Of a stretch of DNA of 44,687 bases, positions 30,621 to 39,015 are shown piece by piece (the stretch's first letter is position 1; the number at the start of each line of letters is the position of its first letter). Below the pieces are notes generated by a model that saw nothing but the letters and a program-made list of their open reading frames with translations, was not told the origin of the DNA and searched no databases. This DNA is from a virus. Both the position numbers and the translations under genes were made by a program. The stretch lies in the IMG/VR virus record IMGVR_UViG_3300040771_000271, positions 85,236-129,922 of that record. The stretch is one strand, 5' to 3'.

Positions 30621-31307
30621 TTATTTTGTAAAAAACTTATTGTAAACTTTATAATACTCGGATATTTGTTCAGCTACTTCGTCAAACTTTTTTAAGAACT
30701 TTTCTGCACGCTCTGTAGAATATGGAGTTTCAATATATTTTACATCTCCTGTAAGCCTTAGTGGGTACTTTTCTTGCCCGTTTCCTTTTCTGTCCAAAAG
30801 TATAACTCTTGAGTTTATGATATTATGACCTTCCACCTCTCTTTGATAAGAGTAAAGTGTTGTCTGTTGATAGTCGTCACTACCATAATAAGAAACTTTT
30901 GAACTTACAGCTCCTGTCTTTAAATCTTCTACTACTAACCCATCTTGGTGAAAATATTCCCTATCTGAAAATCCTTGTATAACATACCAACCTCTGTCAA
31001 CAACTATTTCAGATTCATATCTAGCATTTTCAGGTCTTTTTATAGAGTCAATAACAGAACGATCAAAATCAGTTAACCCTGTATCGGTTTTATCCTCAAA
31101 ATATTGTCCACATTTTGAACCGTATGAAGTGAAAATATTTCCATCATTACTTAAACCTAAAAAATAATTAGCAAACATTTCTCCTCTATACCCATCTTCT
31201 AAAAAACTATTATAAGCAGAATAACTTAACTTAGGCTTTCCTTTATGTTGAGGATAGTTTCCTTGACCATCTTCATATATTTTTGGTAATATTTTATTTG
31301 ATTGCAT
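30621..31307 (-). CDS. PD-(D/E)XK family exonuclease (Cas4/RecB-like)
   Basis: LSYS, E, QGFSD, VEDLKTG, Q..LY motifs. Confidence 0.8.
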   Translation of the reverse strand: MQSNKILPKIYEDGQGNYPQHKGKPKLSYSAYNSFLEDGYRGEMFANYFLGLSNDGNIFTSYGSKCGQYFEDKTDTGLTDFDRSVIDSIKRPENARYESEIVVDRGWYVIQGFSDREYFHQDGLVVEDLKTGAVSSKVSYYGSDDYQQTTLYSYQREVEGHNIINSRVILLDRKGNGQEKYPLRLTGDVKYIETPYSTERAEKFLKKFDEVAEQISEYYKVYNKFFTK

Positions 31308-32262
31308 CTAAAATTTCTTTAATTTCTTGTTTTTTTCTCACTTTAACTTCTACTTTATCTGACGCAAACATAGTGTTGTCAATATATAGACTAACTAATA
31401 TATCTTCTAATATTAATTTCTCTTTTTTAGTCACTTTCTTTTTTGACAATAATTTTTCTAACTTTTCTTTTGTTTTAATATCTAAATTTGTAGCCTTGTA
31501 AATTTTTTCAAGAATTGGTAAATCTTCTGCAAAAGGCTGTACAGTTGTAGTTTGGTTCTTGTCAATAAATACTTCAAATGGTTGTTCAAAACGCATTTTT
31601 TTAAATATATTAATTCCTGCAAAAACATCTTGTTTAACATAAGAATTAATTTTATCTAACCCATTATTCCAATATTCATTTGAAACCATAGAGCCATCTA
31701 AATCTGTTTTAGGACTTGGTATATTAAAATGATAACACATTTCGTCTAAAGAAGTATTTGCATAATGAGTGCCCTTAAAAATATCCATTAAGTCTAAGCA
31801 TCTGTCTAAGTTCCATGATTTTTTCCCACTTGTCAAAAATCTATCAACTAAGTTTTCAGTTACATTGAAATACCTCATGCCATTAACTGCAACCATTGGG
31901 AGGTCATATCCTAAAATATTTGCGCCACAAACATAATCAAAGGTATTTGCAATAGAGCAGAATTGTCTCAAAACGCTCTCTTCATCTCCTTCTAAAGCTT
32001 TTATGTGAACTTCTCCATCTTTAATAAAACCTACACCAACAGATACAATTTTAGTGTAACACATTTTTAATGCAGCTCTTTTATTATATTGTTCTACTAC
32101 TTCATCATCAGGTAATAATTCATCTGTTTCTATGTTTCTAGTTTTCTTTTGAAACAATTCAAATTCCTTAGAGTTTATATCTAAATCCTTGTTACGCCTT
32201 ACTACTTCTAAATCGAAGAATAAGACTTTTTCTTCATTGATTTTTTTAATTGTTTGATTCAT
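31294..32262 (-). CDS. DEDD 3'-5' exonuclease (PolB-exo-like stand-alone)
   Basis: FFDLE, GANILGYDLP, DLMD, SLD...F.IPSPK..LDGS.V, Y...DV. Confidence 0.82.
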   Translation of the reverse strand: MNQTIKKINEEKVLFFDLEVVRRNKDLDINSKEFELFQKKTRNIETDELLPDDEVVEQYNKRAALKMCYTKIVSVGVGFIKDGEVHIKALEGDEESVLRQFCSIANTFDYVCGANILGYDLPMVAVNGMRYFNVTENLVDRFLTSGKKSWNLDRCLDLMDIFKGTHYANTSLDEMCYHFNIPSPKTDLDGSMVSNEYWNNGLDKINSYVKQDVFAGINIFKKMRFEQPFEVFIDKNQTTTVQPFAEDLPILEKIYKATNLDIKTKEKLEKLLSKKKVTKKEKLILEDILVSLYIDNTMFASDKVEVKVRKKQEIKEILDAIK

Positions 32263-32838
32263 TGTTTTTTTCAGTTATTAATAAATACTTATATCCTTGT
32301 GCTCCGCTTTCTAATTCTATTTCTTTTATAGTTCCTTGAGCTACTAAGTTTTGAGTTTGTTCTAAATCTTTTTGCGCCAAAATATTGAGTGTGGCTTCAA
32401 GATAAATTAATTTTTCCATACCTATTTATTTTTGTTTTTTTTAACCCATTGCTCAAAATTTTCTTTTATAACTGTTTCGTTACGAGATATTGGCAACCTA
32501 TTACCAGCTTGAAAAGCTCTTTCTAAATCTTTTTCAGTATACATATTTATTAATTTTTTACAAATATATTACTTTTTCGGCGAGATAAAAAATAAAACAG
32601 TCTTTATTTACTTAAAAACTTTTCAATTAATAACTTCTCTTCACTAATAGACTGTAACCTACTATTAACATTACTTAAAAACAAACTATTAATATCTTCA
32701 AACATATTTAAACTCTCCTCTGTAGTTAAATCATTTAAAAGGTTATACAATATTGTTTCTTTCCTAGTCATTAACTCTCTTTCGTGATTTGACTGTTTTC
32801 TATTTTCTCTCCAACTTTTAATTCTTTGTGTCATAATT

Positions 32839-33099
32839 TTAAAATGGTATTGTATCAGCTTCAACTATTTCTAATTTATAGTCTATACTTTTTGTTAAAA
32901 ATTTTAATTTATTTATAGTTAGTTTTTGTCTTTGAATGTTATATACAATTGTCGCCTTAAAAACATAAAAAGGAATTTCTTTTAAACCGTAAGACCTATT
33001 ATCTTTTAAGTAAGGCAATTTATATAACTTTTTATCTTTCCATCCATAGTTTACATTTTTATATGTAAAACCGTATTTAAATTGTAATGTGGTAATCAT
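32839..33099 (-). CDS. Basic 86-aa hypothetical protein adjoining the attI-like end of the cassette array
   Basis: MITTLQFKYGFTYKNVNYGWKDKKLYKLPY...; starts 51 bp from the first GTTA core site. Confidence 0.7.
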   Translation of the reverse strand: MITTLQFKYGFTYKNVNYGWKDKKLYKLPYLKDNRSYGLKEIPFYVFKATIVYNIQRQKLTINKLKFLTKSIDYKLEIVEADTIPF

Positions 33100-33120
33100 A
33101 GGACTTTATTTTAGTGTTGA

Positions 33121-33163
33121 GTTACCACATTAGTTACGTGTATGCACAAGTTACGGCAAATAC
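33121..33163 (+). other. Putative attI-like primary recombination site
   Basis: gttaccacattagttacgtgtatgcacaa-GTTACGGCAAATAC. Core GTTA at 33150 with no upstream hairpin arm; extra GTTAC direct repeats at 33121 and 33133. Confidence 0.5.
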
Positions 33164-33561
33164 TATGTTTTGTTTTCATAAGTCAATTCAGTTCCTGTGA
33201 GTGCGAAATATAAATTTTGTAGCTGATGAACTGTTTTTATTTTAATAAACTCAAATGATTCAAACATAAATTCCTCTACATCCTCATTACACATATGAAT
33301 TTTTACATCTCCAAATTTAAAAGCTTTGCTCGCTTGTATTTCTTGTGGGTCAGAAGTAAAGTAGCTTTCTGCATTAAATTTGCGTAGCCATTCTTCTGTT
33401 AACGGTATTGGTTTAATATCTTCATATAAAATAATTACTCTACAAGGTCCAGAAGCAACTGCTCTTTTTTCTAATAACTCTAATATTTGTTCAGTTCTTG
33501 GTATTCCGCTTCCTAAGTCTAATCTTGAAATAAAATTCCCAATTCTTAATTCATTTTTCAT
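33163..33561 (-). CDS. Cassette 1 gene: conserved phage hypothetical (ELRIGN...PIPLTEEWL...VHQLQNLYFALTG.EL)
   Basis: ORF track; recurrent Bacteroidota-phage family motifs. Confidence 0.75.
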   Translation of the reverse strand: MKNELRIGNFISRLDLGSGIPRTEQILELLEKRAVASGPCRVIILYEDIKPIPLTEEWLRKFNAESYFTSDPQEIQASKAFKFGDVKIHMCNEDVEEFMFESFEFIKIKTVHQLQNLYFALTGTELTYENKT

Positions 33562-33592
33562 AACAATATTTTTAGTTTAATAATCCGTACTT

Positions 33593-33682
33593 GCCCTAAC
33601 ATACGCTTGTAGCTATATGCAGAAACTCCCTGCTTTTATTCACGATTGCGGTGGCATACAGCTACAAGCTTTTCCGTTAGTA
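33593..33682 (+). repeat. attC-like site 1
   Basis: GCCCTAAC-ATAC-GCTTGTAGCTATATGC...GCATACAGCTACAAGC-TTTTCC-GTTAGTA. Confidence 0.8.
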
Positions 33683-33688
33683 GCAATG

Positions 33689-33937
33689 TTAGAAACCCTG
33701 TTGACGAAGACGATATTCTTTACAAAGCCTACAATATTTATTAAGGAAAATATGACCACATTCTTTTTCTTCTATTTCTTTTTGACTATCTTCTACTTTT
33801 TCGACTACTTTGTAGGTTTCATAATCTAAATTTGTCTCTTTAACTATCTTATTTTTTAAGCTAAAAATAAACACAGCTACTAACAGCACATAAGCGCAAG
33901 CAATTAATTGGGTATTGAATTTAAATTTTGTTTTCAT
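33689..33937 (-). CDS. Cassette 2 gene: hypothetical protein starting inside attC-like site 2
   Basis: 82 aa. The hydrophobic ACAYVLLVAV segment is encoded by the attC arm; C-terminal CGH...C..C. Confidence 0.6.
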   Translation of the reverse strand: MKTKFKFNTQLIACAYVLLVAVFIFSLKNKIVKETNLDYETYKVVEKVEDSQKEIEEKECGHIFLNKYCRLCKEYRLRQQGF

Positions 33938-34013
33938 TTTGTTGTTATTTATAATTAATATAATTATTGTTTTTTGTCAGCAATTGCCTTCGCCTATGTG
34001 CGAAACGTTACCA
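33878..34013 (+). repeat. attC-like site 2
   Basis: TACTAAC-A-GCACATAAGCGCAAGCAATT...AATTGCCTTCGCCTATGTGC-GAAAC-GTTACCA, with an AT-rich loop. Confidence 0.8.
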
Positions 34014-34019
34014 GTAATG

Positions 34020-34244
34020 CTACAGTAGCGGTAAAATATAATCTGATTTATTGAAACATTCACTTATGAATTTCGCATGTCTTAACGCTTCTGATTTTTC
34101 TGTAGTATCAATTATTTCATTACTTGTAGTTAAATATGGTATTCTTGCTATTTTATATTTTGCACCTAAACTTGTGCCTATTATATTCCAAGCATTCTTT
34201 GATTCAGAATGAACAACCTTTGTATTTATATTTGGATTTTCCAT
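34020..34244 (-). CDS. Cassette 3 gene B: hypothetical protein
   Basis: 74 aa ORF; stop codon begins 13 nt after the G of the GTTA core. Confidence 0.7.
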   Translation of the reverse strand: MENPNINTKVVHSESKNAWNIIGTSLGAKYKIARIPYLTTSNEIIDTTEKSEALRHAKFISECFNKSDYILPLL

Positions 34245-34247
34245 AGT

Positions 34248-34544
34248 TTATTTAGTAACATCATTAAAAAAATCAGGATAAATATTTTTTATCATTTCTT
34301 CAGCATCATCTTGCATTTTAGTCCCTTTAACAGCAATCCATAAAGCATTTGATAAATAAGATAAATGATTAACACTGCCTCTTGTTAGTGGATTAATTAA
34401 ACTTTTAAATTCATAATTAAGATTGAACATTTTACCCTCTTTTGTCTTATTAAATTTTGATAGCCAATCATCATGAGAAACACTACTGGTAACACCTGCT
34501 ATACTCAATGCCTCGTTTTCGGTATTATTAACTTCTGTTTTCAT
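34248..34544 (-). CDS. Cassette 3 gene A: hypothetical protein starting inside attC-like site 3
   Basis: 98 aa. EALSIAGVTSS is encoded by the attC arm and TAAC box. Confidence 0.7.
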   Translation of the reverse strand: MKTEVNNTENEALSIAGVTSSVSHDDWLSKFNKTKEGKMFNLNYEFKSLINPLTRGSVNHLSYLSNALWIAVKGTKMQDDAEEMIKNIYPDFFNDVTK

Positions 34545-34615
34545 AAGTTCGTTTTTTTTAGTTAGAATAATTCGTTTTCATAAATCGGCACTAAGTATAG
34601 CACCATCCGTTAGGG
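34487..34615 (+). repeat. attC-like site 3
   Basis: TGGTAAC-ACC-TGCTATACTCAATGCC...GGCACTAAGTATAGCA-CCATCC-GTTAGGG. Confidence 0.8.
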
Positions 34616-34623
34616 ATAACCGC

Positions 34624-34905
34624 CTATTGGAGTAGATTAAAATTACCGATAGACTCTCTTACATCTTTGTAATATGCTTTTTTATCGTGATTTAAGCACC
34701 TTGCATTGTAAGAATCACTACCTTGTTTATTATGAAGTTCTTCTCCTAGTTCCGTGAGTGCTGAAACAACTTCATCCACTATCAAAAATGCTTTTCTTTT
34801 TAAATCTGTTTTAGCATAATTTGAACAATTTTCCCATAATGCTTTTGATATTTTACCGTTGTTGACTTTTTCTAAAATCTCTTTTGCTTTTTCTAAATGT
34901 GTCAT
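34624..34905 (-). CDS. Cassette 4 gene: hypothetical protein
   Basis: 93 aa ORF bounded by GTTAGGGATA and TATCCCTAAC. Confidence 0.7.
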   Translation of the reverse strand: MTHLEKAKEILEKVNNGKISKALWENCSNYAKTDLKRKAFLIVDEVVSALTELGEELHNKQGSDSYNARCLNHDKKAYYKDVRESIGNFNLLQ

Positions 34906-34940
34906 TTTTATAAATTTTGATTGATTAGTATTTCGTGGTA

Positions 34941-35027
34941 TATCCCTAACACACGATAAGGTCTATTTGCCGAATCTACCCGCCACAACCTATAACAGCT
35001 AGTAGCAAGGCTACGATTACGTTATTT
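34941..35027 (+). repeat. Degenerate attC-like site 4
   Basis: TATCCCTAAC box is present but lacks a matching right arm. A second CCTATAAC box, a short GTAGC/GCTAC hairpin and GTTA follow. Confidence 0.5.
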
Positions 35028-35431
35028 ATGATATTTAGATTTTGGTTTTTCAAAGTAATTTCCATTTTTATCAGTAATAGTAATCAATGGCTCTATAACT
35101 TCATTTTTAAGCAACCATTCACTTCTCATTACATCTTTAATTTCGTGATTATTAGTCACTATTTCTATTCCTCTTTCTATTTCTTGCATTGATTTTGCTA
35201 TTTGCGCTCCCATAGGAATATCTGCGCCTACAATTAATACTTTTTTCATTCTTATCTTTTATAAAATTTTATAAAATGTTTCTCCCTCTAAAATAATTTC
35301 TTCAATAATATTTCTGTTTATTAAATTGTAAGTGTCTATTTGAATTCTCCAAAACCAACAGGCTTTATCTGTTGATAGTGTTTTACCTTTATAGTTTTTT
35401 AAGGTGTTTATAACCTCTTGAATATCCATAA

Positions 35432-35860
35432 TTATAATGTAATTTCATAACCTATCATAGCTGAATTTGCACTATCATAAGAGAATATAAATTTTTTATA
35501 TTGGACTTGCACCCCTACACTTCTATAAATATTTTGAGCTTCTTTTTTGCCGTTTATATTTTGTTCAAAATAAGTTGCACCTAATTTACCTGTAATTGTA
35601 ATATCTTCAAAAGTAGCTCCAATTAAGAAAAACAGTGAAGGTGTTAGTTTGTCTTTTGCAATATGTTTATTTGGATGATCCATTCTTGTAGCTCTTTTAG
35701 CAACTTCTTTTGCGTCAGTTATAGAAACAGCAACTCCGTAATTTAAATCTCCCTTCATTTTAAAGTTTACTTCAAATGATTTGTAACCTACTAAGGTTGA
35801 TACTGTATTTTGACTATACCCTAATAAAGGGAATAATAATATTATAATTAATTTTTTCAT
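35432..35860 (-). CDS. Secreted or outer-membrane beta-strand-rich protein
   Basis: Bacteroidota-type signal peptide MKKLIIILLFPLLGYSQ; alternating amphipathic strands; C-terminal IGYEITL. Confidence 0.55.
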   Translation of the reverse strand: MKKLIIILLFPLLGYSQNTVSTLVGYKSFEVNFKMKGDLNYGVAVSITDAKEVAKRATRMDHPNKHIAKDKLTPSLFFLIGATFEDITITGKLGATYFEQNINGKKEAQNIYRSVGVQVQYKKFIFSYDSANSAMIGYEITL

Positions 35861-37629
35861 TTTAAATTTTCTTTTAGTTTAATTAAAACCTTTTTTAGGT
35901 GAGAATCATTTCCATAAACATTAATAAAACTACCTTGTATTTCTGTTGTTGTAAATAATGCTTTAGTTATGTAATTAGTTGAGAAAAACCTGGATTGACA
36001 AACTTCTAATATTTCTGGACAATTTTCTTCTGAAGTTAATAAACCACAAACCCAATCTGTTTTTCTCTTCTTTAAAAGTATGTAAGGGTGCTTAAATACT
36101 CCGTGCATAAGAACATCTCCTGCTTTATATTCAATAGGTTTTCTTTTTTCAGGATTTGCTGGTAAAACTGTTACCCAACTTAATAACTGTTCGTGATTAT
36201 ATTTTTTATCTTTTATTTTCTGTAAAAGTATATCCTTATCCATTTTTTAAGCCTAAATAAATTCCTAAACATAACCATTCAAACTCCAATTCTCTTGAAT
36301 TTATATTAATATTTAAAGCTGGGATAATTGCCCAAAACTGAAAATTTAATACAATATTAATATAGAAGTTTATTTCGTTAATGCTATTCATAATAATTAA
36401 TTTAAATATTCATTCCCTTCTTCATCATAATATTCCTCCTCTACTTCCCATTCTGTCCAATAATACACTTCATCATCAAAAGCTTCATCCATTGTATCAT
36501 AACCTAATTGTTCACATTTATCTAAGGCATCTAATGATGAAGCACAATAAAAATCACCATCATTAAAACAATAACCTTCATTCATCCCCTTTCCCCTAAC
36601 ACTATCTTTTCTTGCAAACTTTTCCATAATATTAAATTTTAGTGTTTTTAATTTTCTCCCCTAAATCCAAATAATAAATTAATTCCAAATAAACAAACTG
36701 TTGTTGAAACAGAATAATACATACATCTATCCAATCTATAAGTGTTTGCTTCAAAAATCCACGCAAAAAAGAATAAAACAGTGAAGAATATTGTTATAAT
36801 AACTGATAATCTAAATAACTTCCTCATAATTACTCTTGGTTAAATTCTACATTATCTTGACAGCCTTCATACCAAAAGTCTGGACAATCACTTAAATCCA
36901 TTTCTTGCTCACAAAAACATTCAATACTTTCATCTTCTATTTCGTGTAAAAGTATATTCCCACAATTACCACAAGTTACTACATTAAAACCTGCATTTTG
37001 CATAGCTTCTTGTATTCTAATTTGATTTTCTGCTAATTCTCTTTTAGTTTTCATAATTAAATCTTTTTAAGTTGTTTTTCGGCGAAATAAATAACTAAAT
37101 CTCTTTCCTTTTTAGATAAATTAGAAGTTCTATTATTAACTAAATCATATAATCTAAGTATTTCTGTTTTACTTAAATTTTCATATTTTCTATATGTTGG
37201 ATTTTTCTTTAAACCTCCTCCAAAGTTTCTTAAATAAAACTGAATTTCTTCTGATTCCATTAGAGTATTCAAGTATGTATTCATAACTATTCTTTATTTT
37301 TAATTCTGCAAAACTCTTCAATTGTATCGTAATACTCTAAATCAACTCCCCACTCAATATTTTCATAATCTCTCATAAAAATATCAACCCACTCTTTTGC
37401 TAATTCATACATTGCACCTCTCCCTTGCTCTTTATATCGTTTTAATATTGTTGACCAAGCATCATCACCTTTCCAAGCTGTTAAATGTTCTGATATAAAT
37501 TCTACTATATCATAATGTACTTCTAGGTATTCTTCTAAGTTTTTCATAATTAAACCTTTTTAAATTAAATAATAACGAGCGTATACATTCCTACCAATAA
37601 TTCCTGTATACGCCATTATTAATATGTAT

Positions 37630-39015
37630 CTAGTTATTATAGTTTTCTAATTCTTTTTTGTTGCACTTGTCAAAACCATAGTATTCGAGAAATAAATTTT
37701 GATTTAATTATTTTGGAAAGAAATCTTCTAACCAATTATTTTTTCTAGCCCATCCAAAAGCTCCGCTCGAACCTATTTTAAATTTAAACCTATTTGTGTA
37801 TTTTTTTGCCTCTGTTTTACAATTCTCGTAATTCCAATAATTTCTTGATTTTCTAGTATCTATCATATGTGAACAAATTTCCTCCGCCCATCCTTTTGCA
37901 AAGGCTTTGCTGTAAATACTATTAGCTTCTTTTATAAATTGAGAACGTAAAGAGTATTTTAATGCTTTTTCATGGCATCTTTCTTTAGTCCAATAATTGT
38001 TAAGTTTTTTAAGTTCAACCATATGAGAACATACCAAACCTATCCATTTATTTTTTAAACACGCATTATAAGCATTTTCATTGTTTAAAATAAATTCTTT
38101 TTTAGTAGTATATTTTAACGCCTCTAATCTACATATTTCAAAAGTCCATTTTATTTTTCCTCCTCCTAATCCCCCTGCTTTATTTTTATTAAGGATGCAC
38201 TTACCTAATTTTTTATATTCTTCGACTATTAAATCCTCCAATTCGGAAGCGTCCTCTTTTGAATAAAGTGTATCACTGATTAACTCAAAAACAGGTTTAC
38301 TGTTAGTTTCTAACATATGTTTATAAACTGAACTTTTTTCATCTGATAAATGGCTATTAAACCTCTTTTCAGGATTACACGTTAAACCAATATAAACACA
38401 ATCATCATAAAAAATTGCCTTATAAATATACCTTTTTTGTATATTACCTAAAGGAATCATATGACTACATATTTCTTCAAGCCATCCACTTCTATGTGCA
38501 ACAACATAAGCAGAAGGGTTGTTTTCTTGAAAATCTTTCTTGTGTTTATACTTACTTGCTTCTTTCGCACAATTTTCTTTGTTCCAATACCTATTAGGTT
38601 TTCTACCTTCAACCATATGAGAACAAATCTCATTTAACCATCCTTTTTTATGAGCTATCCTATAAGCTTGTCCACAAGATTTTAAAAAGTCGATTTTTCT
38701 AGTGTATTTTATAGATTCCTGTTTACATAATTCTAAAGTCCATTCAAATTTTACCATTTTACAATTAGTTTTATTAATATGGGTAAATATAATAAAACTT
38801 TTTTATATATGAAAACTAATTAATTTATATTAAATAATTTTTTATGTTGTTGCACTGTAATACCCGTAAACACTCATTTCATTTGTTAAATGGTTATAAC
38901 TCGCAACTCTTGACTCATAACTGACTAAATCCGAGTAATGGTCGCCTTCACTATTTACGTATTCGTTTACGTGGTGTTTTGCTGTATTGTTTAAATAAAA
39001 TGTTTTATGTGTCAT
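37630..39015 (-). pseudogene. Small phage gene apparently split by the GIY-YIG insertion
   Basis: 5' part 39015-38842 MTHKTFY...LVSYESRVA...YGYYSATT*. 3' part ~37698-37630 NLFLEYYGFDKCNKKELENYNN* has no start codon. Confidence 0.55.
37708..38757 (-). CDS. GIY-YIG homing endonuclease with five tandem ~50-aa repeats
   Basis: YIY...VYIGLT.NPEKRF..H...E...LN. Repeats W..E.C..EA.KY....F......AY..A...GW...IC.HM, two before and three after the nuclease domain. Confidence 0.85.
   Translation of the reverse strand: MVKFEWTLELCKQESIKYTRKIDFLKSCGQAYRIAHKKGWLNEICSHMVEGRKPNRYWNKENCAKEASKYKHKKDFQENNPSAYVVAHRSGWLEEICSHMIPLGNIQKRYIYKAIFYDDCVYIGLTCNPEKRFNSHLSDEKSSVYKHMLETNSKPVFELISDTLYSKEDASELEDLIVEEYKKLGKCILNKNKAGGLGGGKIKWTFEICRLEALKYTTKKEFILNNENAYNACLKNKWIGLVCSHMVELKKLNNYWTKERCHEKALKYSLRSQFIKEANSIYSKAFAKGWAEEICSHMIDTRKSRNYWNYENCKTEAKKYTNRFKFKIGSSGAFGWARKNNWLEDFFPK

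Follow-up and report, generated by a model that had tools for sequence, protein, structure and literature searches.

The window analyzed here, i.e., the whole stretch of 44,687 nucleotides, has a G+C content of 28.7%, carries nearly all of its genes on the minus strand, and belongs to an IMG/VR phage record of 98.5 kb that is approximately 70% complete. The product of one gene of the region shares 59% identity with a Cellulophaga phage protein and 42% identity with a protein of Maribacter phage Molly, thus indicating a Flavobacteriaceae host. A blastn search of positions 31000 to 38000 against GenBank phages returned only 2 short, weak matches, and neither Rfam at the gathering threshold nor a tRNA scan gave any match in the window. 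Identical copies of 2 proteins described below, ORF98 and ORF82 (P0001 and P0006), are encoded on a public contig of 129,922 nt, and public data therefore include a more complete genome of this phage.

Sites were searched for with the pattern TAAC, arm, loop, arm, GTTA, and the TAAC and GTTA boxes are hence invariant by design of the search. Exactly 3 such sites were found in the window (33597–33679, 33881–34010, and 34490–34612), all within approximately 1 kb. A looser scan for AAC and GTT across the whole 98.5-kb record returned the same 3 sites and a single unrelated match outside the window. The features of the array, all of them on the minus strand and given in sense-strand order, are the following.

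34947–35024, minus strand: site 4, the first of the array, degenerate as judged from its sequence, with both boxes kept and no stem left
34624–34905, minus strand: 93-aa cassette gene (ORF93), with its start 41 nt past the box (start-downstream class)
34490–34612, minus strand: site 3, long type, consisting of 5′ box (34609–34612), 5′ arm (34587–34602), loop (34513–34586), 3′ arm (34497–34512), and 3′ box (34490–34493)
34560–34583, minus strand: 7-codon mini-ORF that opens the site-3 loop, the first of 2 ATGAAAAC repeats
34248–34544, minus strand: ORF98, with its ATG at 34542–34544 and residues 1–22 encoded by the loop, arm, and box of site 3
34020–34244, minus strand: 74-aa gene, phrog_38014, in the same cassette as ORF98
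33881–34010, minus strand: site 2, long type, consisting of 5′ box (34007–34010), 5′ arm (33982–34001), loop (33906–33981), 3′ arm (33886–33905), and 3′ box (33881–33884)
33689–33937, minus strand: ORF82, with its ATG at 33935–33937 in the site-2 loop; the rest of the protein is an orphan
33597–33679, minus strand: site 1, short type, with a 33-nt loop without a start codon inside and arms at 33605–33620 and 33654–33669
33163–33561, minus strand: 132-aa cassette gene, phrog_10066, with its start 36 nt past the site-1 box
33150–33163, minus strand: terminal flank and box closing the last cassette, complementary to 33585–33598

Site 4 does not fold as DNA (z = +0.13) and was counted as decayed; the flank beside 34947 is complementary to the flank beside 34612. 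Pfam and PHROGs provided no function for ORF82, ORF93, or ORF98. The ORF at 35022–35249 ends with a TAA stop codon that forms part of the first TAAC box in the array (35021–35024). Past the terminal flank at 33150–33163, relatives carry an attI-like junction and a recombinase gene, both of which are absent in this phage. Just past this flank, at the place of the junction and recombinase of the relatives, a perfect 11-bp hairpin with a 26-nt loop (33085–33132), which has no TAAC/GTTA boxes, encloses the ATG of the ORF at 32839–33099.

The inverted repeats of sites 2 and 3 are bracketed by TAAC and GTTA and consist of 20-nt arms (33886–33905/33982–34001; 85% complementary, 76 nt apart) and 16-nt arms (34497–34512/34587–34602; 88% complementary, 74 nt apart), respectively. 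Compared to shuffled sequences, the 2 sites fold with z = −3.7 and −3.6 on the gene-sense strand, versus +0.5 and −1.7 on the opposite strand, and the fold energies of the 3 intact window sites are −38.2, −32.2, and −29.7 kcal/mol on the sense strand, versus −29.1, −21.7, and −23.4 kcal/mol on the other one. They are members of a family that occurs in Bacteroidota-phage contigs and is built from a TAAC box, a 16–22-bp stem with its loop, and a GTTA box, with asymmetric spacers (5–6 nt versus 1–4 nt); shuffling of related loci yielded 0 sites in 303 kb. Among unique arm pairs (n = 115), the identity between sites is only 33%, each arm pairs with its own partner, and swapped partners pair at 4.9 of 16 positions. 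The family is conserved in structure, not in sequence.

Mismatches within the stems, read on the gene-sense strand, are G.T in 175 cases versus A.C in 56 (p = 2e-15). Turned around to match a canonical integron, the array has its gene-sense strand in the position of the canonical bottom strand, and the wobble bias favors the strand equivalent to the latter. This provides only indirect evidence, and recombination of a folded strand remains an inference. Moreover, since the gene-sense strand is also the mRNA strand, neither the wobble bias nor the better folding can separate a role of the DNA from a role of the RNA.

Between successive sites, the right-hand flank of one and the left-hand flank of the next are complementary at approximately 13 of 15 nt, which applies to all 4 junctions of the window. 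At least 12 of 16 positions are Watson–Crick in 22 of the 27 neighboring flank pairs, compared to 3.4% of random pairs; the N5 part covaries, and the resulting outer stems have a length of 14 bp. Position 11 of this outer flank stem is G.T in 24 of the 27 pairs, counted across all arrays (in the window, e.g., 34478–34493 with 34007–34022), and such a fixed wobble implies strand-specific recognition or folding.

A preliminary description of this region, made from sequence alone, had proposed that the ORFs 33689–33937 and 34248–34544 start in the AT-rich loops of sites 2 and 3 and read through the hairpin arm and the TAAC box. This held for both minus-strand ORFs, the first starting at 33937 in the site-2 loop (with ..ACAYVLLVAV.. 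encoded through arm and box) and the second at 34544 in the site-3 loop (..EALSIAGVTSS..). It also held that the site-3 loop contains 2 A-rich starts, with TTATGAAAAC copies at 34537–34546 and 34574–34583, the upstream copy of which opens the 7-codon mini-ORF only. A further proposal, that each cassette carries its own start in the loop, held only in part, i.e., for about half of the sites and for none of the short ones. This was determined on an unbiased set of 46 sites from the window, a complete 130.6-kb relative (G001), and 19 of 26 recombinase-bearing IMG/VR loci. Twenty of these sites have a loop ATG that opens a frame of 49–464 aa through arm and box, and the genes of the remaining sites start 17–86 nt past the box, typically at approximately 34 nt, a class that includes 2 of the 4 window cassettes. 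In a larger, biased set of 143 unique sites, loop starts were found in 0 of 25 short and 66 of 118 long sites; the box is read in phase 0 in 49 of these 66 and in phase 2 in the other 17, with no other phase occurring. The same test on the antisense strand was passed by 7 long sites.

The 20 start-holding loops have a length of 66–77 nt and consist of 69–84% A+T and 42–60% A, with the ATG located 28–53 nt after the 5′ arm and 22–44 nt before the 3′ arm (42 nt and 32 nt, respectively, for ORF98). Such a spacing would leave room for an unstructured initiation region. The SD-less initiation region of Bacteroidota is A-rich and unstructured, with the start codon in an unpaired stretch of approximately 30 nt or more (compare Baez et al. 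2019). In composition and spacing, the start-holding loops meet this criterion, being A-rich and unpaired. The suggestion that the variable loop is a portable, SD-less initiation signal in the style of Bacteroidota is thus supported by comparison, while initiation itself is inferred.

Evidence for the translation of a site-encoded N-terminus (hereafter, the head, as opposed to the body of the protein) was obtained from the ORF98 family. Four homologues of ORF98 were identified (43–68% identity by MAFFT; 49–67% by BLASTP), all of which came from the large protein collection, and no relatives were found in the viral-contig scan or by tblastn against phages. Residues 24–38 of ORF98 are conserved in the homologues, including 8 invariant positions, and the window sequence contains no ATG between the loop ATG and residue 39. 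Since the loop ATG is the sole ATG upstream of this conserved block, translation of ORF98 has to start before residue 24 and has to include the head. True starts downstream of the TAAC box, which would have refuted the preliminary description, are therefore argued against for ORF98, as conservation begins upstream of any alternative ATG. Furthermore, ORF98 and 3 of its homologues harbor 4 unrelated arm sequences and arm-encoded peptides, joined to the body through the same V-x-x-S-V-S-H junction, and the flank that follows the GTTA box (flank X) is identical in 2 of these bodies and nearly so in the others. The fourth homologue, which is distant and located outside any array, starts 8 residues before the conserved block and has no head.

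Common heads were also found on unrelated bodies. An exact-pattern scan of IMG/VR for site-3-type heads revealed 33 copies, including that of the window, 27 of which were analyzable. All 27 are in frame at the GTT (valine) codon of the box, and they are followed by bodies from 19 unrelated clusters, including C5 and N6/N4 DNA methyltransferases as well as PAPS-reductase-like and HAD-like proteins. Where the body is a methyltransferase or a PAPS-reductase-like protein, its Pfam domain starts immediately behind the head, at profile positions 1–3, and no significant match was obtained when the tagged proteins, with their heads removed, were compared all-against-all by BLASTP. The site-2 head is joined to 4 unrelated bodies, being nearly unchanged in locus L086 and present in a diverged form in G001 and L022; an exact variant of the site-2 head pattern recovered only already known loci. 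In ORF82, for the body of which no homologue was found, the arm and box of this head encode the hydrophobic core of an N-terminal signal/anchor segment. In L086, G001, and L022, i.e., 3 of the 4 partners, the head together with a lipobox cysteine encoded by the body is predicted to form a lipoprotein signal peptide, with export and lipidation being inferred.

Thus, 2 additional claims of the preliminary description held: unrelated phage proteins have common short attC-derived tags (19 bodies for the site-3-type head and 4 for the site-2 head), and L.I..V..S and ...LL.AV-like segments map onto TAAC hairpin arms. Both motifs correspond to the box GTTA-N5-AGT in 2 frames, with phase 0 resulting in V..S and phase 2 in LL..V. 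The term "attC-like" is justified by architecture and logic alone, since the recombinase that accompanies the sites is not an IntI.

Relatives of the locus were obtained via a neighboring exonuclease gene. The complete relative G001 carries at least 11 sites in a single orientation, which obey the flank rule, and site 3 matches its positions 113934–114051 with 72% identity, from box to box only. Recombinase genes were found in 26 IMG/VR loci and 5 MAG contigs, the latter labeled Flavobacterium, Chitinophagales, Saprospiraceae, Calothrix, and an uncultured bacterium. Wherever upstream sequence exists, the sites are located upstream of the recombinase gene and co-oriented with it; in G003, for example, a 276-aa tyrosine recombinase is encoded just downstream of a site. 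An attI-like junction, consisting of a variable flank and TAAC followed by conserved sequence, precedes every recombinase ATG by approximately 60 nt. The recombinase is Xer/IntI-like, and its alignment to VchIntIA (2A3V) matches residues 18–176 with 17–179 and residues 195–272 with 241–318, the gap indicating that approximately 43 residues of the IntI-specific insert (I2 helix domain) are missing. Its TIGR02249 score is 169 bits, in 2 pieces, compared to a cut-off of 265, and it remains below the cut-offs of both IntI models. No tyrosine recombinase was found in the window's own record (98.5 kb, approximately 70% complete). In G001, the recombinase gene is cut down to the N-terminal SAM-like domain (105 aa), with an HNH/NUMOD4 homing-endonuclease gene directly after it (L016 14538–15767, corresponding to G001 114538–115767); since only this remnant is left, the array of G001 has lost its enzyme.

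High-identity matches between contigs begin exactly at TAAC. While 34 matches span the hairpin from box to box only, 14 continue from TAAC into the following gene, none extends from a preceding gene to end at GTTA, and 1 extends from GTTA across a gene as far as the following hairpin (98% identity). Together with the junction on the recombinase side, these limits place the cassette boundary at TAAC, so that a hairpin and the gene behind it form one unit. A second sharp boundary, that between head and body, is located at GTTA.

It is likely, in our view, that Bacteroidota phages carry an integron-like system of gene cassettes and that sites 2 and 3 are its recombination hairpins, with the recombination as well as the initiation within the loop being inferred. 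The anatomy of the sites, the complementary flanks, the association with recombinase and junction, the in-frame fusions of heads and bodies, and the headless homologue are shown. In this model, a cassette on the sense strand would consist of the TAAC box, 5–6 unpaired nt, 5′ arm, loop, 3′ arm, 1–4 nt, the GTTA box, flank X, the gene, and flank X′, followed by the next TAAC. Flanks X and X′ are complementary to each other, and this layout would be a mirror image of the classical integron, the site being placed 5′ of the gene to which it belongs. Since the mRNA has the same foldable strand, a start codon could sit only where it is single-stranded. In short sites (loop of approximately 20–35 nt), the start would be located approximately 34 nt past the box, and in long sites, the entire SD-less, A-rich initiation region would lie within the 66–77-nt loop. 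From there, the ribosome would read on through the 3′ arm and box, resulting in a site-encoded head of 15–27 residues, in which arm-encoded residues would be unconstrained as protein and box-encoded residues fixed by the DNA. Some heads may have been recruited as signal peptides. That the recombinase moves the cassettes, which strand it would use, and that initiation actually occurs in the loop is inferred from comparison, without experiment.

Several findings speak against this model. The recombinase is devoid of the insert thought to be necessary for recombination of folded single-strand attC sites, the record of the window has no tyrosine recombinase and the complete relative only an N-terminal remnant, and a GTG just after the box is a possible alternative start for some bodies (L026). 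Furthermore, unrelated bodies can have identical heads and homologous bodies different ones; this second boundary is not explained by a single crossover at TAAC, which counts against what we consider the best explanation. The literature that was searched, which was not exhaustive, gave no account of sites of this kind that contain start codons, nor of a system combining this recombinase with an array.

The likeness to integrons comprises arrays of small cassettes separated by imperfect palindromes, which are conserved in structure rather than sequence and have AAC/GTT cores, with the rest of each outer box complementary to the far end of the same cassette. It extends to a unique junction beside a tyrosine recombinase of the Xer/IntI group, which is present in relatives and not in the record of the window, and, especially with respect to sedentary chromosomal integrons with uniform attC sites, to homogeneous site cores combined with unrelated cargo. 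However, the recombinase lacks the IntI-specific insert, scores below both IntI cut-offs, and is co-oriented with the cassettes; all genes are reversed compared to the canonical layout, with the site 5′ of its gene; the outer stems are 14 bp long with a variable N5 and a fixed G.T; and many sites contain a start codon and encode a protein N-terminus. Moreover, the full RYYYAAC/GTTRRRY agreement of attC was not seen in the present sites. The system thus works like an integron, as far as can be inferred for its recombination, and fails the test for integrase membership.

Clusters of attC sites without an integrase (CALINs) have been reported in phages (Qi et al. 2023, PMC9892861), and methyltransferases are part of the cargo there as well as here. 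A pattern scan of Polaribacter phage P12002L, which harbors a published phage CALIN, revealed no site of the present type, and its experimental IntI1 result therefore cannot be carried over. Effects of integron sites on translation have been described, attC hairpins affecting the translation downstream of them (Jacquier et al. 2009, cited in PMC11511950). A short ORF in attI1 likewise affects translation in classical integrons. In those systems as in the present one, the sites are transcribed and their structure interacts with the translation of cassette genes; however, the classical site modulates a gene that starts outside of it, whereas here the initiation region and 15–27 codons lie inside.

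PeSL modules of T4-type phages reportedly consist of an early promoter joined to a stem-loop and flank mobile ORFs (Arbiol et al. 2010). As with the present sites, their stem-loops recur on either side of small accessory genes within hyperplastic phage regions and indicate where genes are exchanged. PeSLs are thought to act via homologous recombination. Unlike the system described here, they are not known to have an associated recombinase or complementary cassette flanks, or to encode N-termini. The pdif modules of Acinetobacter plasmids are formed by XerC/D sites in alternating orientation, which are 28-bp duplex sites acted on by the host XerC/D. Recombination of the Xer type is implied in both cases, and both kinds of modules are bounded by inversely oriented short sites, but pdif sites are not known to have a hairpin core, a dedicated adjacent recombinase, or a coding role.

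Among the alternative explanations, head donation survives best and remains possible. In this scenario, the crossover would occur at GTTA, and the mobile unit would be a startless body together with the next hairpin, such that a hairpin would provide start and leader to any body landing behind it, i.e., an in-frame fusion by site-specific recombination. This is supported by the single head found on 19 unrelated bodies with a sharp boundary at the GTT codon, by homologous ORF98 bodies carrying 4 unrelated heads on identical or near-identical flank X, by the one 98%-identical match from GTTA through a gene into the next hairpin, and by the occurrence of 2 reading phases only. However, the recombinase-side end of the array consists of a flank and TAAC, not of a hairpin and GTTA, and similarity past the hairpin runs downstream from TAAC in 14 cases versus 1 in the opposite sense. 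Furthermore, the phase in which the box is read differs between sites 2 and 3 of the window, and half of the hairpins lack an ATG; free shuffling would therefore often silence genes.

We consider it unlikely that the hairpins are modules of RNA only, i.e., mRNA elements that would present the start, stabilize or process the cistron, or act as PeSL-like promoter–stem-loops, with shuffling caused by homologous recombination between hairpins and the recombinase being a bystander. In favor of this explanation, the sense (mRNA) strand folds best and has G.U-compatible mismatches, start codons are kept out of the stems, no segment is more conserved between phages than the hairpin cores, and an intact recombinase is missing in this phage and in the complete relative. 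However, it leaves unexplained the one-sided adjacency of an Xer-like recombinase and the conserved junction after the last TAAC, as well as the complementary flanks with their covarying N5, unless long-range RNA pairing over 200–900 nt is assumed; in addition, the arms are too diverse (33% identity) to be general substrates of homologous recombination.

It is very unlikely that loop ATGs are unused, with the real starts downstream and the open frames through the arms incidental: while approximately half of the cassettes do start around 34 nt past the box and some tagged bodies have an in-frame ATG or GTG soon after it (L025 residue 23, L026), in one subfamily, all 27 analyzable heads form open frames that continue into 19 different bodies, whereas only 7 long sites pass on the antisense strand; ORF98 is conserved at residues 24–38 and has no ATG other than that of the loop before residue 39; and lipoprotein signal peptides would make no sense without translation of the head. 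IS200/IS605-type ends, invertons or shufflons, and RNase III processing stems were set aside in view of the single hairpin in each unit, the absence of inverted genes, and the recombinase and junction located at the end of the array.

If the integron-like cassette system is accepted as the preferred reading, its relevance derives from the fact that integrons are the textbook device of gene capture, the sites of which are treated as non-coding, and that the present system would be a mirror-image relative in Bacteroidota phages. The recombinase without the insert resembles the Xer-like ancestor proposed for integron integrases and bears on their origin. A single stretch of DNA would be subject to 3 constraints, namely folding, SD-independent initiation, and coding. 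The model would also account for N-terminal peptides that are common to many unrelated small phage proteins and that otherwise mislead homology clustering and the calling of start codons, and it offers a testable route by which phages may swap methyltransferases and other likely anti-defense genes.

A bolder reading regards the heads as exchangeable expression modules: recombination at GTTA, or the genesis of cassettes, would fuse a start and leader, in 2 fixed phases, to bodies without a start, the leader sometimes being a signal peptide. We regard this reading as possible but less likely than not. If true, one short DNA element would combine a recombination site, a translation initiation region, and a protein-sorting signal, and a phage could capture and express gene fragments that have no start of their own.

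Additional observations concern the loops and individual arrays. The mini-ORF (MKT....*) begins the loops of site-3-type sites, 5 nt after the 5′ arm, and is also present in L016 (around 13960) and L032 (around 4880). Most of the 33 IMG/VR copies, for which the search pattern itself required the mini-ORF ATG, preserve its length, and 1 copy has it joined in frame to the main ORF; a leader ORF is one possible interpretation, the remnant of a duplicated start another. The long loops (L019–L041, G001) have a common A/T-rich TTAAATTAATAACTAA-like motif, irrespective of whether they hold a start, which is placed just before the 3′ arm or before the start region and could be a promoter element or a protein-binding site. 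In L033 (133–1527), a 464-aa frame from a site loop joins the N-terminal part of a C5 methyltransferase to the recombinase catalytic domain, which looks like a deletion fusion, an inference from sequence alone. Finally, 2 consecutive cassettes of L049 (942–1837) have near-identical hairpins and identical flanks, indicating a tandem duplication of the cassette.
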